NCBI GenBank assembly: GCA_009692385.1
Contig: SHZH01000006.1
Location: forward strand, 1,407-25,406
DNA length: 24,000 nucleotides
Reading direction: 5' to 3'
DNA from: Gammaproteobacteria bacterium
Lineage (GTDB): Bacteria; Pseudomonadota; Gammaproteobacteria; JABDGN01
Under the pieces are notes generated by a model. It was not told the origin of the DNA and made no database searches. It worked only from the letters and a program-made list of their open reading frames with translations. This document shows, piece after piece, positions 2,158 to 13,474 of the stretch. Position 1 is the stretch's first letter, and each line of letters opens with the position of its first letter. Both the position numbers and the translations under genes were made by a program.

Positions 2158-3592
2158 TTTTTTTGGGCGGTTTCCAATTTTCGATCACGGTTTGTTTGCT
2201 GCGTGAAATCGTTAATTTACCCGCCGGAGCATTTTTGCTGATAGTTGATCCAGCACCGATGTAAGCCCCCGCGCCAATAGTAACAGGCGCGATCAGTTGA
2301 GAATCAGAGCCGATGAAGGCACCCTCTTCAATCGTCGTAATATTTTTGTGAACGCCATCGTAATTACACGTGATCGTTCCTGCGCCGATGTTTACATTTT
2401 TGCCGATGTTGGCATCACCGATGTAAGAAAGATGCGGGATTTTTGATGCTTCGCCAACGATCGCTTTTTTGGTTTCAACAAAATTACCAATTTTAACGTG
2501 CCCTGCTAATTGTGTGCCAGGACGCAAACGAGCAAATGGCCCAATGATACAGTTATCACTGATTACACTCTCTTCGATCACCACGTTAGAATTAATCGTT
2601 ACGTTTTCGCCGATCACACAATCTTTTAAAATAACATTCGAGCCAATTTTGCTACCTTGACCAATAGCCACTTTACCTTCGACAATGACATTGATGTCAA
2701 AAAAGACATCTTGGGCAACATCGAGTTCACCACGTAAATCAAAACGGGTTGGATCGGCAAAGCTGACACCGCTGAGCATTAACGTCTCGGCAGCTAGCTG
2801 TTGATAGACGCGTTCCAAATAAGCTAGCTGTGAGCGATCGTTAACCCCCATCACTTCTTCAGTAAAGGTCGGTTCGATAGTACAGATGGGTACCTGATCA
2901 GCGACGGCATTTGCAATCACGTCCGTTAAATAATATTCGCCCTGCGCGTTTTTTGCAGTTAAATTGCCGAGCCAGTGTTTTAATTCTTTACCGGGTAGCA
3001 ACATGATGCCGGTATTTATTTCTTCAATTTCTTGTTGCTGTTCGTTGCAATCTTTATCTTCAATAATACCTACTACATTATCTTCAGCATCGCGAATAAT
3101 GCGGCCTAAGCCGGATGGATCGTCTAGTGTTACGGTGACTAAACCCAGAGCATTTTTGTCTGTATCAGTGATCAATTCACGTAAGGTGGTCGTTGAAATG
3201 AGTGGTGTGTCGCTGAGCAACACTAAGATTTGATCGTCATCATTAAAATAATGTTGCGCTTGTTGCAGAGCATGCCCTGTACCGAGTTGTTGGGTTTGCT
3301 CTACCCAGGTAATTTTTTCCAAATACGAAGGGTCCTGCCGCTGCGGCACCTTTGTCGCTTGCACTCCAAAGGAAACCGCCTCCGCGTCAGCCGTCACGCT
3401 CGTGAAAGCTGCCCGAACTTGTTCACCACCATGTCCATAGATGACAATAGTCTGGGCCGGATTTAAGTCAGTCGCGGCATCAATGACCCATTGCAATAAT
3501 GGCTTGCCCGCCAGCGTATGCAGCACTTTCGGCAATTTCGAATGCATGCGTTTACCTTGGCCGGCAGCGAGGATAACTATTTTTAGTGGCAT
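2150..3592 (-). CDS. glmU: Bifunctional UDP-N-acetylglucosamine pyrophosphorylase / glucosamine-1-phosphate N-acetyltransferase
   Basis: The protein is colinear with E. coli GlmU over its full length (LAAGQGKRM, LPKVLHTL, QLGTGHA, NAQGEYYLTD, and left-handed beta-helix hexapeptide repeats ending NYDG..K..T.I). It carries an extra ~25 aa in the N-terminal domain. Confidence 0.97.
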   Translation of the reverse strand: MPLKIVILAAGQGKRMHSKLPKVLHTLAGKPLLQWVIDAATDLNPAQTIVIYGHGGEQVRAAFTSVTADAEAVSFGVQATKVPQRQDPSYLEKITWVEQTQQLGTGHALQQAQHYFNDDDQILVLLSDTPLISTTTLRELITDTDKNALGLVTVTLDDPSGLGRIIRDAEDNVVGIIEDKDCNEQQQEIEEINTGIMLLPGKELKHWLGNLTAKNAQGEYYLTDVIANAVADQVPICTIEPTFTEEVMGVNDRSQLAYLERVYQQLAAETLMLSGVSFADPTRFDLRGELDVAQDVFFDINVIVEGKVAIGQGSKIGSNVILKDCVIGENVTINSNVVIEESVISDNCIIGPFARLRPGTQLAGHVKIGNFVETKKAIVGEASKIPHLSYIGDANIGKNVNIGAGTITCNYDGVHKNITTIEEGAFIGSDSQLIAPVTIGAGAYIGAGSTISKNAPAGKLTISRSKQTVIENWKPPKKNE

Positions 3593-3602
3593 CTTAGGTA
3601 CT

Positions 3603-4883
3603 CTAATTTTTTGGTTTGGCGTAGGTTTCTTTAATAAAAAATAATAATATTAAGGCTAATACAAAGCCTAAGACCAATACAAAAAATGCTTGGTGATAAT
3701 CCGTAACTGAATAAACTCGCACGTTATTGATCAGGGTGCCGTCCCAGTTTTTATCCAACAACCAACCGACTACGGGTTGGAACACAGCACCGCCTGCAAT
3801 CACGTTAAACGATACGACACTGACACTGGTTGCAGTGAGTGCGGGTGAATTTTTCTCAGCCACCAGAGGATAGTTAATAATTTGTGCGCTACTGACAAAG
3901 CCGAGTAAAAAGAATAATACAATTAAGGTATCGAAATGATGCTGCTGGCCGTACACAATGTAAATCAAAATGATAAGTGATAAAACTGCGCCAGCCGCGA
4001 TCGGTGCTCTACGGCGATGAATTTTATCTGAAAACCAGCCAATGATCGGCGAGCCAACTAAGGTGCCAACGAAAATCATCCCGGTGATAATCGATGCTTC
4101 GGTATGGGTGTAACCTTGTGTTTGTTCTAAAAATACCGCACCCCAAATCGCACCTAAAATAAATACCGGCAAGTTCATCATGTTGGTGCAAATGCCACTT
4201 AACCAGTTCTGCCAATTTAAATACGATAATTTTAAACTTTTTAAAAAACCGAGTTCGCGTAACTGCAGTTTGCGTTTTTCTTTGAGCTCAGCAATATGAT
4301 CGGGATAATCTTTAACGCCCCACCAAACTAAAATAAAAATAATCACACCCAATGCGGCGTCCAGATAGATCGCTTCACGCCAACCAAATGCGTTGATGAC
4401 TAAGGTTAATGGCGTTTGTGCTACGGTGCCACCTAAAAATGCCATGGTCATAATGAGGCCGATAATTAACGCTAATTGTTTTTCATGAAACCATACTGCC
4501 GCGAGGCGCATACAACTTAAAAAGCAGAAGGCGCTGCCAATTCCAGTTAAAAAGCGAAATGCTGATGCCCAACCCAGGGAGGTTGAACCCGCGAATAATG
4601 CCGTGCCTATGATACAAATACCTAAGGTGATCAGCACAATTTTTTTGGTGGAGAAACGATCTAACAGCATACCGGCTGGAAATAAAAACAGCAGATTCGC
4701 ATCGAAATACGTTGCGGCTAACACACCGAGCTGATTACCGCTCACATGAAAATCTTGCATCAAATAGGTGGAGAGTGAGTTAACCATATTCATTTGAATA
4801 AATTCGTAGAAAAAGAATAGGCCGCAGGTTAAGCAGACAATCCACGGTAAAAATTTATTTGAACTTGATTTGGTTACTAACAT
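3603..4883 (-). CDS. MFS transporter, paralogue 1 of a tandem trio (possibly Pht-type)
   Basis: This is a 426-aa polytopic protein. It shares blocks with the next two genes (LFFFYEF.QM.M, FPAG.LLDRFST.K, RLA..WF....LAL..G...TMA.LGG). It lies 10 nt upstream of glmU on the same strand. Confidence 0.85.
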   Translation of the reverse strand: MLVTKSSSNKFLPWIVCLTCGLFFFYEFIQMNMVNSLSTYLMQDFHVSGNQLGVLAATYFDANLLFLFPAGMLLDRFSTKKIVLITLGICIIGTALFAGSTSLGWASAFRFLTGIGSAFCFLSCMRLAAVWFHEKQLALIIGLIMTMAFLGGTVAQTPLTLVINAFGWREAIYLDAALGVIIFILVWWGVKDYPDHIAELKEKRKLQLRELGFLKSLKLSYLNWQNWLSGICTNMMNLPVFILGAIWGAVFLEQTQGYTHTEASIITGMIFVGTLVGSPIIGWFSDKIHRRRAPIAAGAVLSLIILIYIVYGQQHHFDTLIVLFFLLGFVSSAQIINYPLVAEKNSPALTATSVSVVSFNVIAGGAVFQPVVGWLLDKNWDGTLINNVRVYSVTDYHQAFFVLVLGFVLALILLFFIKETYAKPKN

Positions 4884-4904
4884 ATGATTGTTTCCTTAAA
4901 TTAA

Positions 4905-5049
4905 TAGACTTCATTCCAAACCGAATCTTAAGTAATTACTCTGCGTTGCAATTGCGCTCCGTTGCTCACATATGTCTCATATATGCTGCGCTACGGTGCT
5001 CATTGCGCCTTGATTAATCACTCAATCTTCTAGTTTGGAAAGAAGTCTA
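4905..5049. repeat. 145-bp imperfect palindromic (MITE-like) element with 17-bp terminal inverted repeats
   Basis: TAGACTTCATTCCAAAC (4905-4921) is complementary to GTTTGGAAAGAAGTCTA (5033-5049) with one mismatch. The inner arms remain roughly 70 percent complementary by hand alignment, with the centre near 4977. The right end contains the TAG stop (5047-5049) of the upstream MFS gene. Confidence 0.6.
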
Positions 5050-6330
5050 ATGATGTTCTTTCACTAAGCATGCACACACTAATCCGATCACAAACATGAT
5101 CGGAAAAATCCAAAAAGCAAATTGATAATCAGCAATGGAGTAAACTGGAACTCCCGCTATTTTCGTACCATTCCAATGTAGGTCTAATAAAAAACCCATT
5201 AACGGTTGAAATATAGCACCGCCTCCCATAATAATAACTGACGCGAGTCCTAATGCTGACGCCGTTAATGATAACGGATTACTCGCTGTAATTAAGGGAT
5301 AGCTGATGACTTGTGAGCTAATAAAAAGGCCCATTAAGAAAAACAAAATCAACATGGTGCTAAAGGATGCATTCGGCCAAAAACGGATCGTGAAAATAAT
5401 GATAATTGAAAAAATGGCACCGTAAATCATCGGTTTTTTACGTTGACGAATGCGATCAGAGATCCAGCCGAGTAATGGGCAGCCGACGATCATACCGAGA
5501 AAAATCATGCTATCAATCAGCGAAGCTTGAGTGCGCGAAAAACCATTTACTTGTACTAAATAGTTGATACCCCATAGGGCGCCGAGTACTAAAATCGGTA
5601 AATTTAAAAATGACGTGAACAGACCCGCAAACCAATTTTGGCTGTTGCGTATGGTCGTCCAGATCGCTTGACGCAATTGGGGGGCATGGGGTTCGAGATG
5701 GGTTTTAAGATAATTGCGTGGATAATCACGCACTAACAGAATAATTAACAGTAAGAAAATCAACCCAATACCCGAGTCAATCATCACCGCGTGTCGCCAA
5801 TTGACAGCAGCAACTAACAAGGTCATTGGCGTTTGCGCTGCCATACCGCCGAGCATTGCCATGGTCACCACCGCTCCTGTTACTAATGCGAGTTGTTTCG
5901 AAGCAAACCAACGAGAGGCTAACCGTAATGAACTGAGTAAATTAAAAGCAGCGCCAAAACCACATAATAAGCGCATCGCAAATGCAAACCAATAATTTTC
6001 TGAAAACGCGAACAAGAACGTCGCGACTACGCAAACACTCATCGCTGCTACCAGGATCCAGCGTGTAGAAAAACGATCTAACAAAATACCTGCGGGAAAT
6101 AGCAATAAAACGTCCGCATAAAAATAACCCGCAGAAAGATTGCTCACTTGAGTCGCACCAATATTAAACGCCTGCATCAAATCATTATTGATGACATTGA
6201 ACATGTTCATCTGTAAAAATTCGTAAAAGAAAAAGAGCGCTGAAGTAAGGACAACAATCCACGCAAGCAAACCACCGTATTGTACGGTAGGTTGTTTGAC
6301 ATATTGAACGGTCATATCAATTGTTGGCAT
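5047..6330 (-). CDS. MFS transporter, paralogue 2 of the tandem trio
   Basis: This protein has the same conserved blocks as paralogues 1 and 3. The start is ambiguous between ATG at 6330 (MPTID..) and ATG at 6315 (MTVQ.., 1 nt after the upstream stop). Neither has a clear SD. The track start at 6351 is a GTG. Confidence 0.82.
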   Translation of the reverse strand: MPTIDMTVQYVKQPTVQYGGLLAWIVVLTSALFFFYEFLQMNMFNVINNDLMQAFNIGATQVSNLSAGYFYADVLLLFPAGILLDRFSTRWILVAAMSVCVVATFLFAFSENYWFAFAMRLLCGFGAAFNLLSSLRLASRWFASKQLALVTGAVVTMAMLGGMAAQTPMTLLVAAVNWRHAVMIDSGIGLIFLLLIILLVRDYPRNYLKTHLEPHAPQLRQAIWTTIRNSQNWFAGLFTSFLNLPILVLGALWGINYLVQVNGFSRTQASLIDSMIFLGMIVGCPLLGWISDRIRQRKKPMIYGAIFSIIIIFTIRFWPNASFSTMLILFFLMGLFISSQVISYPLITASNPLSLTASALGLASVIIMGGGAIFQPLMGFLLDLHWNGTKIAGVPVYSIADYQFAFWIFPIMFVIGLVCACLVKEHH

Positions 6331-7621
6331 AGGCTTTACAATAAGTCTCACGTACTAGTAGGGCCATAAAGAATGCGATTATAAACATGATTGGGAAGAT
6401 CAGCCAGGCAAAATGATGATCCGCCGCGGTATAAATGGGGACATTGTTTATCTTTAAACCATTCCAATGTAGATCTAGTAACCAACCAAAGAGAGGTTGA
6501 CCGAATGCACCGCCACCCATGATCAAGACCGCTGCCCAACCCGTGGCTGTACCGACTAAACAGTTCGGATTACTTTCAGCGATCAAGGGATAACTGATAA
6601 TTTGACCGCTACTAATAAAACCGAGCGCTAAAAACAAGAAAAACGAACTCCAAAAACTCAAGTTCGGGATGTACATGATCAGTAAGATCAAGATAAGCGA
6701 CAATACGGCACAGATCAGCATGGGTAATTTACGACGCCCCCAATGATCTGACCACCAACCTAGCACGGGTGAGCCGATCACAAAGCCGAAAAACAACATC
6801 ATGTTGACGGTAGACGCTTGAGTTTGTGACATATGATGTACTTGGACTAAAAATTCAGTACCCCATAATGCACCTAATACTAAGATAGGCAAGTTGATGA
6901 ATGAGGTGTAAAAACCCGCTAACCAGTTTTGGCTATTACGCCAAGCACTGAAAACTGTTTTCCAGAAACCTAATTTTTGCAATTGCGCCTGACTGGTTTC
7001 TTGGATTTTTGAACCGGGTGGAAAATCGCGTACCTGCCACAAAATAATGGCAATGAAGACAATGCCTAATAAGCCATCGATGAATACCGTGTGACGCCAA
7101 CCGAAATGTTGTACCAAGATCGAAATTGGCGCTTGACCCACCATGCCACCGAGCATCGCCATCGTGACGATCACACCGGTTGCTAAGGCTAAATGTGCCG
7201 GTGGAAACCAACGGGTTGCTAAACGTAAAGCACTTAAAAAGCAGAATGCCGCACCAACACCCGATAATAAGCGCATCGTCATTGCTAATTCATAAGTATT
7301 AACGAACGAAAAAATAATCGTAGCGGCGGTGCAAAGTGACATCGCGGCGACAATAATTTTACGCGTTGAAAAACGATCGAGAATAATACCTGCGGGAAAT
7401 AAGAATAAAACATCGGCATAAAAATAACATGCTGACATATTACTAATTCGCGTTGCCGTGGTGTTAAAGGCTGCCATGAGATCAGCATTAATCGAACTAA
7501 ACATAGTCATTTGCACGAATTCATAGAAAAAGAATAACGAAGCGCAAATAATGACCAACCAGGCTTTGGCGAGAGGGGGTGTTGCGGTAGGATCAAATGA
7601 AGAAGTGTTTATTGTAGTCAT
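6317..7621 (-). CDS. MFS transporter, paralogue 3 of the tandem trio
   Basis: This is the closest paralogue of 5047-6330, with long identical runs such as YFYADVL.LFPAGI.LDRFSTR and TMAMLGGM. The start is placed at ATG 7621 (MTTINTSS) because a GAGG lies 9 nt upstream. The longer track ORF begins at a TTG. Confidence 0.85.
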   Translation of the reverse strand: MTTINTSSFDPTATPPLAKAWLVIICASLFFFYEFVQMTMFSSINADLMAAFNTTATRISNMSACYFYADVLFLFPAGIILDRFSTRKIIVAAMSLCTAATIIFSFVNTYELAMTMRLLSGVGAAFCFLSALRLATRWFPPAHLALATGVIVTMAMLGGMVGQAPISILVQHFGWRHTVFIDGLLGIVFIAIILWQVRDFPPGSKIQETSQAQLQKLGFWKTVFSAWRNSQNWLAGFYTSFINLPILVLGALWGTEFLVQVHHMSQTQASTVNMMLFFGFVIGSPVLGWWSDHWGRRKLPMLICAVLSLILILLIMYIPNLSFWSSFFLFLALGFISSGQIISYPLIAESNPNCLVGTATGWAAVLIMGGGAFGQPLFGWLLDLHWNGLKINNVPIYTAADHHFAWLIFPIMFIIAFFMALLVRETYCKAYANN

Positions 7622-7746
7622 TACGTTCATCCTCAACAATAAGAAGTCGCTAATATAGCATAGGGCTATTATTAAAGTCTTGTGCAATTTTATGATTATT
7701 GGATGGTACAGGCCTAGGGGATTGTAACAAGTTAGGGGACGCTCAA

Positions 7747-7799
7747 TTTCACCTCTCCCCTTGTGGGAGAGGTCGCGCGCAGCGCGGGAGAGGGGTGAT
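7747..7799 (+). repeat. Structured hairpin repeat, copy A
   Basis: The sequence is ATTTCACCTCTCCCCTTGTGGGAGAGGTCG-cgcgcagcgcg-GGAGAGGGGTGAT. The left-arm hairpin is ACCTCTCCC/GGGAGAGGT and the central hairpin is CGCGC-gca-GCGCG. Confidence 0.9.
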
Positions 7800-7850
7800 T
7801 AATAAGTTCGCGAAGCGAATCAAATAAATTTAAGGAAGAAAGCTATTTAG

Positions 7851-7911
7851 ATCACCCCTCTCCCGCCACGCCTTCGGCATGCCGACCTCTCCCACAAGGG
7901 GAGAGGTGAAA
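7851..7911 (-). repeat. Structured hairpin repeat, copy B (inverted relative to A, 51-bp spacer)
   Basis: The reverse complement has arms identical to copy A. The central hairpin is replaced by CATGCC-gaa-GGCGTG. Confidence 0.9.
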
Positions 7912-8038
7912 CTTCTTTTCCTCGTGTAATTTAAAATAAAGACGTTCTTGATATAAGATAGCGTAAAATACAGGTCAGCTTACGCGAAGCAAACCGACAA
8001 AAACGAAATAAGCGTTTAAATTATAGAGATGTTAATAG

Positions 8039-8842
8039 ATGGATACTTTAGAACGACCAACAGTGAATGAACAAAATCATAGAAAGCCATTTTTTGCTGT
8101 AAAAGAAATATTATTCGTTGGTACAACGTTATTAGCAATTTTTACTGGACTATTTTTAATAACCGGTTGGGGATATCAATTAGGATGGTCGTACATATTT
8201 AATTATTCTCCAGATTGGAACAGTATATCAATAATTAATTTACGGTTAGATGGGTTTAATGTTTTTGAAAAATACAAATATACGCTTGGCTTATACACTT
8301 GTGGTGTTGGACTACTATTTTTTCTTCTTTTCGAAGCTTTAAGAAAAACAAAAGAAATATGTAGGTCTATATTCGTAGTAAATTTAAGCAAACTATTTTC
8401 ATCTTTAATAATATTCATAGTTAGTGTATGGTTGATAAACATATTTTTAGATTACGGAATGGATTATGGTAAATCTAGAGCCTTATATAATATGTCGCAA
8501 TATAATGTTTCTTTTAAGAATCAAAATAATATAGTTCCTTTCATGTCAGGGGGTGTGCAAATCTATGATAAGAAAGATGTGCTATATAATGGCTATATAA
8601 TAAATGGCACTGCGGAAAATGGTGTTATTTATGCCTCAGTCAATGTAAATGATATTCCAGCAACTTATGTTATAAAAGATTCACTTATGAAATCCCCGAT
8701 AAGTTTTCCTACGGTTTATTATGATAAATTCATTGCCTGCATGAAATCCAAAAACAAAAATTTCTCTTATGTGATAATAAAAAGCGATCCAAATGTTAAA
8801 GAGTGTTGCACCTTAGCTTTTAAAGATGTAATTCAATGCTAG
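8039..8842 (+). CDS. Hypothetical membrane protein (orphan, AT-rich)
   Basis: This is a 267-aa ORF with about three hydrophobic helices in the N-terminal half and a polar, N/K/Y-rich C-terminal domain with paired Cys near the end. I recognise no family. It is the only long ORF in this interval. Confidence 0.55.
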   Translation: MDTLERPTVNEQNHRKPFFAVKEILFVGTTLLAIFTGLFLITGWGYQLGWSYIFNYSPDWNSISIINLRLDGFNVFEKYKYTLGLYTCGVGLLFFLLFEALRKTKEICRSIFVVNLSKLFSSLIIFIVSVWLINIFLDYGMDYGKSRALYNMSQYNVSFKNQNNIVPFMSGGVQIYDKKDVLYNGYIINGTAENGVIYASVNVNDIPATYVIKDSLMKSPISFPTVYYDKFIACMKSKNKNFSYVIIKSDPNVKECCTLAFKDVIQC

Positions 8843-8853
8843 AAATTTTTCTA

Positions 8854-8915
8854 ATTTCACCTCTCCCCTTGTGGGAGAGGTCGAACAAAGCTATGCTTTG
8901 TTCGGGAGAGGGGTA
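8854..8915 (+). repeat. Structured hairpin repeat, copy C
   Basis: The left arm is identical to copy A. The central hairpin is CGAACAAAGC-tat-GCTTTGTTCG and the right arm is GGGAGAGGGGTAT. The copy ends 5 nt before the DUF559 ATG. Confidence 0.9.
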
Positions 8916-8920
8916 TTAAA

Positions 8921-9316
8921 ATGAGCCTACAACATTTTAAAAGGCAATTACGCACTAACCAAACCGATGCTGAAAGCATGCTTTGGTATAATTTGCGTGC
9001 CAAGCGTTTTTGTAACTTTAAATTTCGTCGTCAAGTTCAAATTAGAAAATATATTGTCGATTTTGTTTGTCATGAGCATAAATTAATTATTGAGCTGGAT
9101 GGTGGTCAACATAACGAAACCTTAATTAGACTAAAAGATAATGTTCGAACTAAAGTTTTAGAAAGTGAGGGATATAATGTTATTAGGTTTTGGAATCACG
9201 ATGTATTGCAAAATCGTGACGCAGTTTTAGATAAAATCTTTACGATTTTATCTAACCCCCTCTCCCGCGCTACGCGCGACCTCTCCCACAAGGGGCGAGG
9301 TGAAATAATGCAGTAG
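8921..9316 (+). CDS. DUF559 domain endonuclease-like protein (Vsr-like, PD-(D/E)xK fold)
   Basis: The 131-aa protein contains ..ESMLWYNLRAKRF..FKFRRQ..I..YIVDFVCHEHKLIIELDGGQH......D..R...L...GYNVIRFWN.DV.. This matches the DUF559 pattern with the D...ExD..H motif intact. The C-terminal 20 aa and the stop are encoded by repeat copy D. Confidence 0.85.
   Translation: MSLQHFKRQLRTNQTDAESMLWYNLRAKRFCNFKFRRQVQIRKYIVDFVCHEHKLIIELDGGQHNETLIRLKDNVRTKVLESEGYNVIRFWNHDVLQNRDAVLDKIFTILSNPLSRATRDLSHKGRGEIMQ
9254..9306 (-). repeat. Structured hairpin repeat, copy D (inverted relative to C)
   Basis: The reverse complement is ATTTCACCTCGCCCCTTGTGGGAGAGGTCG-cgcgtagcgcg-GGAGAGGGGGTTA. It has one substitution in the left arm and its central hairpin is nearly identical to copy A. 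Confidence 0.9.
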
Positions 9317-9991: not shown

Positions 9992-11206
9992 ATGAAATTC
10001 AATATCCCACTATTATTATGGATCACTTTTTTAGATATTTTAGCGCTCAGTGTGTTTTTTGGCACCAGTATTCCGTTAATTTTAGCGCCGAATAGTGTGT
10101 TATTGGGCGCGATGAGCCAACATGATTTGATTTATGGATTTACACTCGCCATCTTGCCGATCGGCCAATTTTTGTTTGCTTCGATTTGGGGACAATTAGC
10201 CGATCAATACGGACGTAAAAGAATTTTAAGTATCACGTTGACTTGCTCAATGTTAGGTTTTTTATTAATGGCTTTGGCAATTGATGAGAAACTATTTTGG
10301 TTATTTATCATTGGACGTACGTTCAGTGCGATCGTCGCCATCAATGGTGCTTTAGCGCAAGCGAGTATGGCCGATTTTTCACAAGGCGTACAAAAAATAA
10401 AACGGTTTAATTTACAATTCATCATGGTTAGTTTTGGTTTTATTTTGGGCCCGTATTTTATTCAATGGACCACACATTATATTCATTTTTCTCATGTGTA
10501 TTGGTGGGTAGGTACGTTTTACGCATTAACAGCACTTGCTGTGGTAGCGAAATTCACAGAAACGTTACAAAACATTTCGCAACAAAAAATCAAATTAACC
10601 GTCAGCTTTCAGCGCATCACAATGCTGTTTAAAGAAAAATCGATCCGCAAAATATTGTTGGTGTGGTTGGTGTTTCAACTTGGCTGGTGTTTGTTTTTTC
10701 AATTTTCCGGTGAGTTTTTATATAGTGGTCGACATTTTTCTAATGAAGCGATCAATCAATTATTTTCTTGGGTGGGTGCAGGGGTGTTGCTCACCCAAAT
10801 TCTTTTCGTACCGCTAGCCGCAAAAAAAATATTACCGGCACAAATTGTCCCCTGGGCGATCATAATCGTTGGCCTAAGTTTATTACTTGGCGGTTTAGTG
10901 CCAATTGGCATGTGGTTTTATTTAACATTGGCATTTTATTGTATTGGCATCGGCTTTTTCCTGACTAACTTTAATGTTTATATTTCCAATTTAACACCCG
11001 CTACGCAACAGGGTCGTATTATGTCGATGTTGACAGCGGCACAGGCTGCCATGACCATTGTGGTAACTCTGTGTGGTAATTTTATCGCGACAAAATACTT
11101 AGCAACGCCTTATGTGATCGGCGGTGCTATTATTCTATTGAGTATAATTTTTTGGTTGTATGCTAAAAATGGTAGGTTGGCTTACGCGAAGCAAGCCAAC
11201 AATTAG
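9992..11206 (+). CDS. MFS transporter, DHA1/Tet-like family
   Basis: This is a 404-aa, 12-TM protein with an N-terminal arrangement like TetA (..LD.L......P.L....; G.L.D.YGRKR.L). It lies 10 nt downstream of the FAH gene, so co-transcription is likely. Confidence 0.8.
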   Translation: MKFNIPLLLWITFLDILALSVFFGTSIPLILAPNSVLLGAMSQHDLIYGFTLAILPIGQFLFASIWGQLADQYGRKRILSITLTCSMLGFLLMALAIDEKLFWLFIIGRTFSAIVAINGALAQASMADFSQGVQKIKRFNLQFIMVSFGFILGPYFIQWTTHYIHFSHVYWWVGTFYALTALAVVAKFTETLQNISQQKIKLTVSFQRITMLFKEKSIRKILLVWLVFQLGWCLFFQFSGEFLYSGRHFSNEAINQLFSWVGAGVLLTQILFVPLAAKKILPAQIVPWAIIIVGLSLLLGGLVPIGMWFYLTLAFYCIGIGFFLTNFNVYISNLTPATQQGRIMSMLTAAQAAMTIVVTLCGNFIATKYLATPYVIGGAIILLSIIFWLYAKNGRLAYAKQANN

Positions 11207-12590: not shown

Positions 12591-12625
12591 ATTAATCTTT
12601 TCCTTTCATAATTCCCCTCTCCCGT

Positions 12626-13474
12626 TTATGGGATAGGGATAGGGTTATCATTGGCAAAACTTCCCACAAAATTTCCAACTAAGCGTAACATCGAGCCTGA
12701 GGCGACTGCTGCATATTTCAAGGTTTCGGCATGTGTAATTTCGGTATTGCTTAAACCAGCCGCGTAATTAGTTACAGCAGAAACGACCACCGTGCGCAAA
12801 CCACAGTGGCGTGCAATGATCACTTCGGGTACCGTTGACATTCCTACCGCCGAAGCACCCCACATCATAAAAGCGCGGATTTCAGCAGGTGTTTCAAACG
12901 TGGGACCTAATGTGGCAATCAATATTCCTTGATGCAAGGTAATATTTTGTTGTTCGGCTATTTTTAGCATACGTTGGCGTAACTCAGGATCATAAGCATG
13001 ATCTAAACCGATAAAACGCGGTCCAAATTCGTCATCGTTGATCCCGACTAAAGGATTGGTAAATTGAAAATTGATGTGATCTGTGATCATCATCAAGCTT
13101 CCCGGCCCCGCATCCATATTCATCGAGCCAACGGCGTTGGTTGCAAGCAACAGTTCACAGCCGAGTAATTTCAAGGTGCGCACTAAAATTTGCACTACCG
13201 GTTTTTCAACGCCTTCATAAAAATGGACGCGACCTTGTAAACAAGCGACGGGTACACCTTGTAAGTAACCCATTACTAAACGTCCGGCATGACCGGAAAC
13301 CGTTGACGTGCCAAATTCAGGTAATTCATCATAAGGAATGATCATCGGATCAGTAATGTGATCCGCTAATCCACCTAAACCAGAGCCGAGAATAATACCA
13401 ATCTTAGGTTTGAAATCAGGAAAGCGAGCTTTAATAGCGCGGGTCGCGCGACCTTGTTTAGAATTCGTGGCCAT
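12626..13474 (-). CDS. Purine nucleoside phosphorylase, trimeric PunA/XapA (PNP family 2) type
   Basis: Diagnostic blocks are ..IGIILGSGLG.L.., F..STV.GH.G.LV.G...G..V....GR.H.YEG and ..GP.FET.AE......GA..VGMSTVPE... The start is set at ATG 13474 (MATNSK) with a GAGG 7 nt upstream. The track start at 13486 is a TTG. Confidence 0.9.
   Translation of the reverse strand: MATNSKQGRATRAIKARFPDFKPKIGIILGSGLGGLADHITDPMIIPYDELPEFGTSTVSGHAGRLVMGYLQGVPVACLQGRVHFYEGVEKPVVQILVRTLKLLGCELLLATNAVGSMNMDAGPGSLMMITDHINFQFTNPLVGINDDEFGPRFIGLDHAYDPELRQRMLKIAEQQNITLHQGILIATLGPTFETPAEIRAFMMWGASAVGMSTVPEVIIARHCGLRTVVVSAVTNYAAGLSNTEITHAETLKYAAVASGSMLRLVGNFVGSFANDNPIPIP

Follow-up and report, generated by a model that had tools for sequence, protein, structure and literature searches.

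The window analysed here is a stretch of 24,000 nucleotides (nt) from contig SHZH01000006.1 of a gammaproteobacterium (assembly GCA_009692385.1). Within 1.6 kb it carries four intact copies of a repeat of the BoxC / PIT / intrastrand triplex motif (TM) type, and two of them enclose a gene for a small nuclease of the DUF559 family. An earlier note, made from the sequence letters alone, had described four copies of one element at this gene and proposed a repeat with its own nuclease, analogous to REPIN/RAYT systems; all four copies are present, essentially at the positions it gave. The copies and the gene are arranged as follows.

7746-7799, plus strand: copy A of the BoxC/TM-type repeat, with hairpin 1 at 7751-7773, second hairpin CGCGC-GCA-GCGCG and third strand GGGAGAGGGG.
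7800-7850, no strand: A/B spacer of 51 nt with a small palindrome, TTCGC-GAA-GCGAA, and no open reading frame (ORF).
7851-7911, minus strand: copy B, inverted relative to A with the third strands facing each other, and with a unique second hairpin, GGCATGCC..GGCGTGGC.
8854-8915, plus strand: copy C, the upstream end of the cassette, with second hairpin CGAACAAAGC-TAT-GCTTTGTTCG; its third strand GGGAGAGGGG stops 7 nt before the ATG.
8921-9316, plus strand: DUF559 (Vsr-like PD-(D/E)xK) nuclease gene, 131 amino acids (aa), with the domain at residues 3-110 and residues 112-131 coming from copy D.
9254-9306, minus strand: copy D, the downstream end of the cassette, inverted relative to C, with T to G in the pyrimidine arm and a second hairpin as in A.
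12613-12645, plus strand: a fifth copy, decayed and of short-loop form, CCCCTCTCCC-GTTTAT-GGGATAGGG-ATAGGG.

The repeats and the nuclease gene in the window

Read on its own strand, each of copies A to D runs from a first hairpin, ACCTCTCCC-CTTGT-GGGAGAGGT, through a second hairpin to the third strand GGGAGAGGGG(T). The left arm, previously given as 30 nt starting at 7747 and identical in A, B and C, was found to start at 7746 and to match at 29 of 30 positions in B, where G replaces the first A; the one-base difference claimed for D is a T to G change in the stem, and the right arm is conserved as claimed, with GGGAGAGGGG after each copy. The second hairpin varies in sequence among the four copies, and its pairing is complete in every one of them; that of D is nearly the same as that of A, and these two copies are the best-matching pair (48/50). 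The 8-mer GGGAGAGG occurs 12 times in the window versus 0.17 times expected from shuffles, and DNA folding of the copies compared with shuffles gave z values of -3.0 to -7.6. The total is 4 intact and 1 decayed copy in 24 kb, with two inverted pairs. A and B form a tails-inward doublet whose 51-nt spacer is free of ORFs, as had been stated, and C and D stand in the same geometry tightly around the DUF559 gene. In A/B this kind of inverted pair occurs without a gene; by inspection, no remnant of a DUF559 gene was recognisable in the A/B spacer, and, taken as a candidate empty site, the doublet has a spacer unrelated to the inner flanks of the gene.

The ATG follows copy C by 5 nt, and the last ~20 codons and the stop of the ORF are read out of copy D, both in agreement with the earlier note. 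The protein matched profile PF04480 with 139.7 bits (cut-off 20.6, E 4e-41), and DUF559 and MTES_1575 were the only Pfam families found for it. The catalytic residues E18, D47, E58, D60 and H64 are present and invariant in 30 sequences. The AlphaFold2 (AF2) model has a predicted local distance difference test (pLDDT) of 93-96 over the domain, and is confident for residues 1-111 and poor over the repeat-derived tail. Foldseek returned, in this order, PDB 3HRL (a DUF559 protein with function unassigned, also matched with E 2e-25), 3R3P (the I-Bth0305I catalytic domain, E 1.4e-5) and 1VSR. The ratio of nonsynonymous to synonymous divergence (dN/dS) against the DUF559 gene of L022, a relative described below, was 0.18. 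Judged from these comparisons, the DUF559 protein has an intact Vsr-like active site under purifying selection. The gene has a GC content of 32% versus 41% for the window, and no sigma-70-like promoter was found upstream of it on its own strand in the window. The neighbours are major facilitator superfamily (MFS) transporters, an orphan ORF, an FAA hydrolase and a thymidine kinase; by Pfam, there is no transposase among them and no recombinase nearby, and no cytosine-5 methyltransferase gene is adjacent to DUF559 in the window. PADLOC and NCBIfam placed the standalone protein in no defence system, though in Hhe, ProA and DpdF the DUF559 domain serves as the nuclease module.

The sole functional datum found for DUF559 comes from Caulobacter VsrA, a DUF559 protein of 177 aa. 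As an active nuclease it damages DNA in vivo, and in cells that lack the solitary methyltransferase ScmA it sets off an SOS response; vsrA is unlinked to the methyltransferase gene, and thus linkage is not obligatory (PMC12907096). Residues E18/D47/D60/H64 of the window protein correspond to the proposed catalytic residues E73/D102/D115/H119 of VsrA at a constant offset of 55. At the Caulobacter NA1000 locus of vsrA (CCNA_02930, 3,090,917-3,091,450, known from the literature only), the annotated protein is ~55 residues longer at the N-terminus, and a 'sense ncRNA', CCNA_R0176, lies just upstream; the extension or the ncRNA could be an upstream TM.

Sequence words and architecture of the copies match Table 1 of Holder et al. 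(2015, PMC4666352) exactly, and we therefore assign the window repeats to the BoxC / PIT / TM family, as a variant whose second loop contains a hairpin. The repeat is thus not an undescribed family and has been known since the 1990s. In a TM, a pyrimidine arm and a purine arm, separated by one loop, are followed by a second loop and a G-rich third strand; the element is also known as BoxC, PIT or TM-ECO (PMC4666352); the earlier work, by Bachellier in the 1990s and by Hoyne & Maher in 2000 and 2002, is taken here as that paper presents it. E. coli K-12 has 23 copies, five inverted pairs among them, and formation of an intrastrand triplex by TM-ECO was shown in vitro by circular dichroism (CD) and nuclear magnetic resonance (NMR) (PMC4666352). 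No function has been found; the motif is tied to genomic instability, and in E. coli its loci are prone to rearrangement. According to the most detailed study of TMs, Holder 2015, no mobility-providing activity has ever turned up nearby; neither DUF559 nor any endonuclease is mentioned there (PMC4666352).

The arms CCTCTCCC / GGGAGAGG, the G-rich mirror third strand and the intergenic dispersal are common to the published elements and those of the window, as are the frequent tails-inward inverted pairs. The T to G change of copy D is the same variant as in 'mm'-type TMs of E. coli. All four intact copies have the hairpin of pyrimidine arm and complementary purine arm, the hairpins being predicted and the triplex putative, and they are intergenic, multi-copy and arranged in tails-inward inverted pairs. 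In contrast, the third strand is GGGAGAGGGG in the window and GGGTGAGGGG in the published elements, and the short loops of the published motif are not found: loop 2 is 13-23 nt long, with a self-paired hairpin of its own in all four copies, whereas the published loop limits are 1-6 nt (ITxF) and 0-10 nt (Hoyne), and searches were capped at 6-10 nt. Published work also names no associated gene. Across the family loop 2 is bimodal, either <=6 nt or >10 nt; the long form accounts for 61% of the oriented copies in loci selected by the 21-nt hairpin, among the matches listed, and 33% beside DUF559, and is treated here as a variant of the TM family.

At least 120 GTDB species, belonging to more than ten phyla, have the exact 21-nt hairpin of the window, and its copies, among the matches listed, are nearly all three-part, with GGGTGAGGGG(T) or GGGAGAGGGG as third strand. 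Where the purine arm is asymmetric, third strands that mirror it outnumber those that repeat it directly by 146 to 24 (2 and 3 in shuffled controls), which agrees with the prediction from triplex geometry. No Rfam family at gathering thresholds covers the element in the window or in 18 repeat-bearing loci. In two AT-rich loci of Legionellales type (L045 1092-1112 and L109 4996-5016), the 21-nt hairpin lies inside a longer perfect stem, GCTTAGGACA…TGTCCTAAGC; the third strand is absent from the former and unreadable in the latter, where N are masked ~20 nt downstream. This long-stem form may be a distinct derivative of the element.

DUF559 genes and their flanking repeats across bacteria

DUF559 loci were picked by protein similarity alone (103 loci, 80 of them metagenomic and 25 from viral contigs), and hairpins were detected as a pyrimidine arm of at least 8 nt, a loop of 3-8 nt and a complementary purine arm with no more than 1 mismatch. 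A hairpin was present within 250 nt upstream of the gene in 73 of 92 loci, downstream in 48 of 85 and on both sides in 38 of 74, and the number expected per 250-nt window was 0.037, calculated from the density of 0.147 per kb at more than 500 nt in the same loci. Hairpin density fell with distance from the gene, from 8.6 per kb at 0-100 nt to 2.2 at 100-250 nt and 0.1-0.3 beyond 250 nt. The query used for the original ranking of the loci contained the repeat-encoded tail, and we recounted the loci whose match ended before residue 115. This bias-free subset gave the same result, with hairpins upstream in 30/32, downstream in 17/23 and on at least one side in 22/22, so that the enrichment is not an artefact of the tail; in the close viral set, which was unranked, the counts were 8/10 and 9/10. 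Hairpins are missing only from distant relatives, for example on giant-virus contigs. Flanking of DUF559 is thus ~15-20x above background across phyla, and the layout of repeat and gene is more than a local accident.

The flanking copies are also arranged in a regular way. Third strands of oriented copies point toward the gene rather than away from it (42:11 upstream, 31:11 downstream), and two or more TM copies are stacked on one side in 29 of 87 loci. The suggestion that copy C is a source of a Shine-Dalgarno sequence holds as a matter of placement in general: across DUF559 loci the upstream third strand ends a median of 8 nt before the start codon, where a ribosome-binding site would lie. 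In L042 (Sphingomonas), the DUF559 gene stands exactly between two copies. The unit C-DUF559-D of the window is one case of a widely conserved compact cassette, of inverted TMs with their third strands inward.

Many of 120 homologues of the window protein have C-termini such as …DLSHKGRGE, …PLPQAGEG, …PLPQGER and …PSHQGRGE, and some have N-termini of the type …LSPCGRGR…GEGY. Such terminal peptides are flanking TMs read into the ORF, a systematic artefact of annotation. Examples of TM-derived extensions are P0013, P0018, P0021, P0063, P0066, P0089 and P0119.

In a survey of 35,000 species, DUF559 coding sequences (CDSs) were 14-fold enriched among the CDSs overlapped by inversion-type inverted repeats, with the cause left unexplained (PMC9881135). 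We found no report of a DUF559-TM partnership in the searchable literature; the TM-DUF559-TM association looks unreported, and it is general.

The association was also approached from the side of the repeat, with 120 loci selected by the 21-nt hairpin among the matches listed. Adjacent tails-inward pairs numbered 33 in this sample: 31 were empty doublets with gaps of 30-150 nt, 1 enclosed DUF559 (gap 464) and 1 had a gap of >600 nt. DUF559 was the sole gene nested in a tight tails-inward pair in these loci. Genes between heads-inward pairs were considered as partners and rejected, that of L037 being an ordinary YggX and that of L088 an ORF with no match. A tblastn search with the window protein on 21 viral contigs with the repeat architecture gave no DUF559.

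Relocation of the cassette and persistence of the repeat

The cassette is compact, ~450 bp with a range of 400-540 bp, and its ends match each other like terminal inverted repeats, often including 2-10 nt outside the hairpin. Outside 58 cassettes, no consistent direct repeats of the kind left by target-site duplication were found. Several cassette pairs with 74-80% identity have unrelated flanks on both sides, and syntenic pairs of similar divergence keep flank similarity. To judge from these comparisons, the cassette has relocated over evolutionary time, without recent jumps. Dispersed copies are closer to the cassette copies at the locus where they lie than to cassette copies elsewhere (0.63 vs 0.41, P 5e-10).

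L022 is a syntenic relative of the window locus, with 77% protein identity, and has both the C and D copies. The upstream copy C is identical at 60 of 62 positions, though synonymous sites of the neighbouring gene are saturated (synonymous divergence, dS, of 1.3). The downstream copy D, in comparison with L022, has had its second hairpin replaced outright, and A and D have a common second hairpin while C keeps the orthologous one. The two loci also differ by a long segment, in which an ORF lies.

7776-8883 (versus L022 5824-6016), no strand: segment absent from L022, 1,108 bp, bounded by a 31-nt direct repeat at 7745-7775 / 8853-8883 (the identical left arms of A and C).
8039-8842, plus strand: orphan ORF of 267 aa between the doublet and the cassette, 29% GC versus 41% for the window.

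Besides the orphan ORF and a terminator-like hairpin, the 1,108-bp segment contains the remainder of A, the A/B spacer and B, and it could be either an insertion beside the cassette here or an arm-to-arm deletion in L022. The orphan ORF had no relative but itself among 5.8 billion proteins, and no match in Pfam, PADLOC or NCBIfam. Its product looks membrane-like, and it probably stands outside the repeat-nuclease system, though inside the indel.

The other differences from L022 and features of the region are as follows. Synonymous divergence was dS 0.60 for DUF559 (8921-9250 / 6016-6345) and 1.30 for the adjacent FAA-hydrolase gene; the lower value for DUF559 and its low GC could reflect a later exchange of the cassette between lineages, or small-sample noise. 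The decayed fifth copy (12613-12645) sits in a 35-nt spacer between two minus-strand genes, and this spacer is absent from L022, where DeoC and PNP overlap. The terminator-like hairpin AGGTYRGCTTACGCGAAGCAARCCRACAA occurs twice with 86% identity (7972-8000 and 11174-11202); one site is at the convergent ends of MFS and thymidine-kinase genes, and the other is away from gene ends, in the interval that separates copy B from the orphan ORF. At ~3900-7690 on the minus strand, three tandem MFS-transporter paralogues form direct repeats with a spacing of 1,290-1,430 nt and 64-75% identity; this region is arranged otherwise in L022, where a gene for a nucleotidyl-transferase stands among the MFS genes.

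The same layout is found independently at ycjD of E. coli. The 3' end of this gene runs into CCCTCTCCC-TGAAAGA-GCGAGGGGG, and TM-ECO #9 lies 170 bp downstream. The interval from ycjD to TM-ECO #9 (L143, K-12 1,351,240-1,351,407) contains a partial duplicate of the 3' end of ycjD, GGAGACGGTGCTGGAGAATATTC…CTGAACCG, followed by GGGTTAGGGG, and it looks as if a unit of gene end plus TM was duplicated. The gene is single-copy, and ycjD with TM #9 was found in the fabI-sapF spacer of 3,346-3,378 of 5,426 E. coli genomes; the remaining genomes have the 8-kb eefRABCD operon between fabI and sapF (PMC12817139). This eef/ycjD polymorphism is real, and no clean empty site was found from it in E. coli. 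At the K-12 hrpB-mrcB locus (L250), 3,266 of the 5,426 genomes have the whole spacer of the TM doublet #1/#2, a number near the 3,378 with ycjD; if these were the same genomes, the gene and the doublets would co-occur by lineage.

What the nuclease may do to the repeat

The reading that we favour, tentatively, is that the nuclease is the cognate enzyme of the repeat and acts on it by a homing-like mechanism of break repair. A DUF559 dimer would recognise the two-fold-symmetric TM pair, or folded hairpin or triplex DNA, and would nick or cut it. The break would be repaired by copying from another TM-bearing site through the 30-60 bp of arm homology, and such repair would homogenise the copies within a genome, swap second hairpins, make indels bounded by TM arms and occasionally move the DUF559 gene itself. 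The upstream TM would also provide the ribosome-binding site. We favour this mechanism because hydrolytic cutting suffices for it, because it fits the closest characterised fold, and because target-site duplications are missing. It also fits the homogenisation within genomes, the exchange of the A/D hairpin while C is orthologous, the indel bounded by TM arms and the instability of TM loci. As a broader proposal, put forward with some reserve, small YcjD-like DUF559 nucleases might be the missing cognate enzymes of BoxC/PIT/TM, which propagate or homogenise the repeats and the ~450-bp cassette by break repair.

Several observations weigh against this reading. A DUF559 gene was present in 2 of the 120 hairpin-selected loci, among the matches listed, and ~98% of the copies lie away from DUF559; the great majority of copies are thus gene-free. 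The earlier note had held that abundance of the repeat in genomes lacking DUF559 would count against the partnership, and this is in part the case in E. coli, where, of 5,426 genomes, 5,148 carry TM copies and only 3,378 carry ycjD, so that TMs persist without the gene in ~1,770 genomes, at conserved loci. Near-identical cassettes in different contexts were not found: pairs with at least 90% identity always share flanks and are the same locus in related strains, so that no recent movement is seen. Efficient homing into doublets would lead one to expect multi-copy genes, yet ycjD is single-copy and the A/B doublet stands empty 1 kb from the cassette. On the upstream side, the position of the TM as a ribosome-binding site offers a simpler reason for adjacency, and Caulobacter VsrA is tied functionally to a cytosine methyltransferase, not to repeats (PMC12907096).

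Part of this would be expected if DUF559 were simply a portable gene, which is less probable in our view and still to be taken seriously. The nuclease would then have an unrelated job, for instance Vsr-type mismatch nicking or a restriction-like one paired with a cytosine methyltransferase, as has been proposed for Caulobacter VsrA; the TMs of the cassette would be conserved expression signals and insulators that accompany the gene in horizontal transfer, with the upstream third strand as ribosome-binding site and the downstream hairpin as stabiliser of the 3' end, and the dispersed TMs would be independent. The median distance of 8 nt between third strand and start codon suits this account, as do the persistence of TMs without ycjD and the use of the DUF559 domain as a generic nuclease module in defence proteins. 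In addition, VsrA damages DNA in cells without ScmA methylation, and the window protein has the residues that correspond to its catalytic ones. However, the inverted ends made of the same element, with matching outer bases, are left unexplained, and so are the stacked extra TMs (29/87 genes) and the locus-specific variant that is dispersed in the genome. PIT elements, moreover, had neither promoter nor terminator activity in E. coli (Hoyne & Maher 2002, as cited in PMC4666352), and no methyltransferase gene is adjacent in the window.

It is unlikely that DUF559 is a host nuclease for DNA structures, which clears or nicks the TM hairpin or triplex formed during replication, so guarding the genome against its repeats, and whose gene came to lie among TMs through autoregulation or recruitment. 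PD-(D/E)xK enzymes do include structure-specific nucleases, TM triplexes are stable in vitro and block polymerases (PMC4666352), and the gene is single-copy and under purifying selection. Joint relocation of the gene with its two TMs is not expected from such a housekeeping role, which also fits poorly with a GC content of 32% versus 41% for the host and with the loss of the gene in 38% of the TM-retaining E. coli genomes.

True transposition of RAYT type, in which DUF559 excises and reinserts TM doublets and its own cassette via single-stranded hairpin intermediates, is rather improbable. We know of no strand-transfer chemistry in a 110-aa Vsr-like hydrolytic nuclease. The layout is that of RAYT/REPIN, target-site duplication is absent, as in IS200/IS605, and the covariation of the third strand points to folded DNA; recent copies in new contexts were nevertheless not found, and the E. 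coli TMs remain at orthologous loci (PMC4666352). An invertible cassette, in which the inverted TMs flip the gene as an on/off switch, would accord with the enrichment of DUF559 CDSs among predicted targets of programmed inversion (PMC9881135) and with the lack of a sigma-70-like promoter on the strand of the gene, and is very improbable: that enrichment is expected of any CDS overlapped by inverted repeats, no recombinase lies nearby, and no alleles of opposite orientation were seen among same-locus pairs. A coincidence of a common repeat beside a common gene, for which the wide distribution of the repeat might speak, is effectively refuted by the 15-20-fold enrichment and the fixed spacing and geometry in ~90 independent loci.

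The favoured reading, of a nuclease that acts on the repeat through break repair, can be set beside known systems. The closest characterised fold is that of I-Bth0305I (EDxHD family, PDB 3R3P; Foldseek template-modelling score, TM, of 0.78 on the target), itself a selfish nuclease gene that spreads by break repair. That gene lies in a phage intron and its product has an extra DNA-binding region, whereas the DUF559 nuclease is free-standing, ~110 aa long and repeat-flanked, and is known here without a defined homing site or a pair of empty and filled alleles. Vsr of E. coli and VsrA have the fold and catalytic constellation of the window protein; they are read as T:G mismatch nickases with a cytosine methyltransferase as partner, unlike the window gene, which has none adjacent, and a repeat context of VsrA is not discussed (PMC12907096). 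Miniature inverted-repeat transposable elements (MITEs) and their parent insertion sequences (IS) likewise comprise gene-containing and short gene-less units with the same terminal inverted repeats. Unlike these, the DUF559 unit has no transposase and no target-site duplication, and no gene remnant is recognisable in the A/B spacer.

In REPIN/RAYT systems, reportedly described by Nunvar in 2010 and by Bertels and Rainey in 2011, hairpin repeats are said to form inverted doublets, a usually single-copy enzyme gene to lie between inverted copies, and the repeats to outlive loss of the gene. TMs resemble this in forming inverted doublets, in flanking one enzyme gene with inverted copies and in persisting without the gene, and the parallel of layout drawn by the earlier note, with a different enzyme, is borne out. 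The enzyme here is DUF559 by Pfam, a Vsr-like PD-(D/E)xK hydrolytic nuclease and not an HUH Y1 transposase, the repeat has a triplex-type third module, and there is no sign here that the enzyme mobilises the repeats. With no HUH transposase, the window system is only an analogue of REPIN/RAYT and not a member. The proposal of a repeat with its cognate nuclease thus stands as regards layout and association; the repeat itself was already known, the action of the nuclease on it is what we infer, and no recent mobility was seen.

BoxC/PIT/TM repeats have been catalogued for ~30 years in hundreds of genomes, with their function, origin and spread unexplained, and DUF559 is among the most widespread uncharacterised nuclease families; the embedding of the gene in TMs joins these two problems. 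For annotation, the consequence is that many DUF559 proteins in the databases have spurious, TM-translated ends. DUF559 is the first concrete candidate for a partner enzyme of the BoxC/TM repeat. If the association is functional, it would represent a new class of repeat-enzyme symbiosis, built on a hydrolytic nuclease and non-B DNA, independent of RAYT and with no transposase, and a cognate nuclease would explain both the extreme conservation of TM sequence across phyla and the instability of TM loci.

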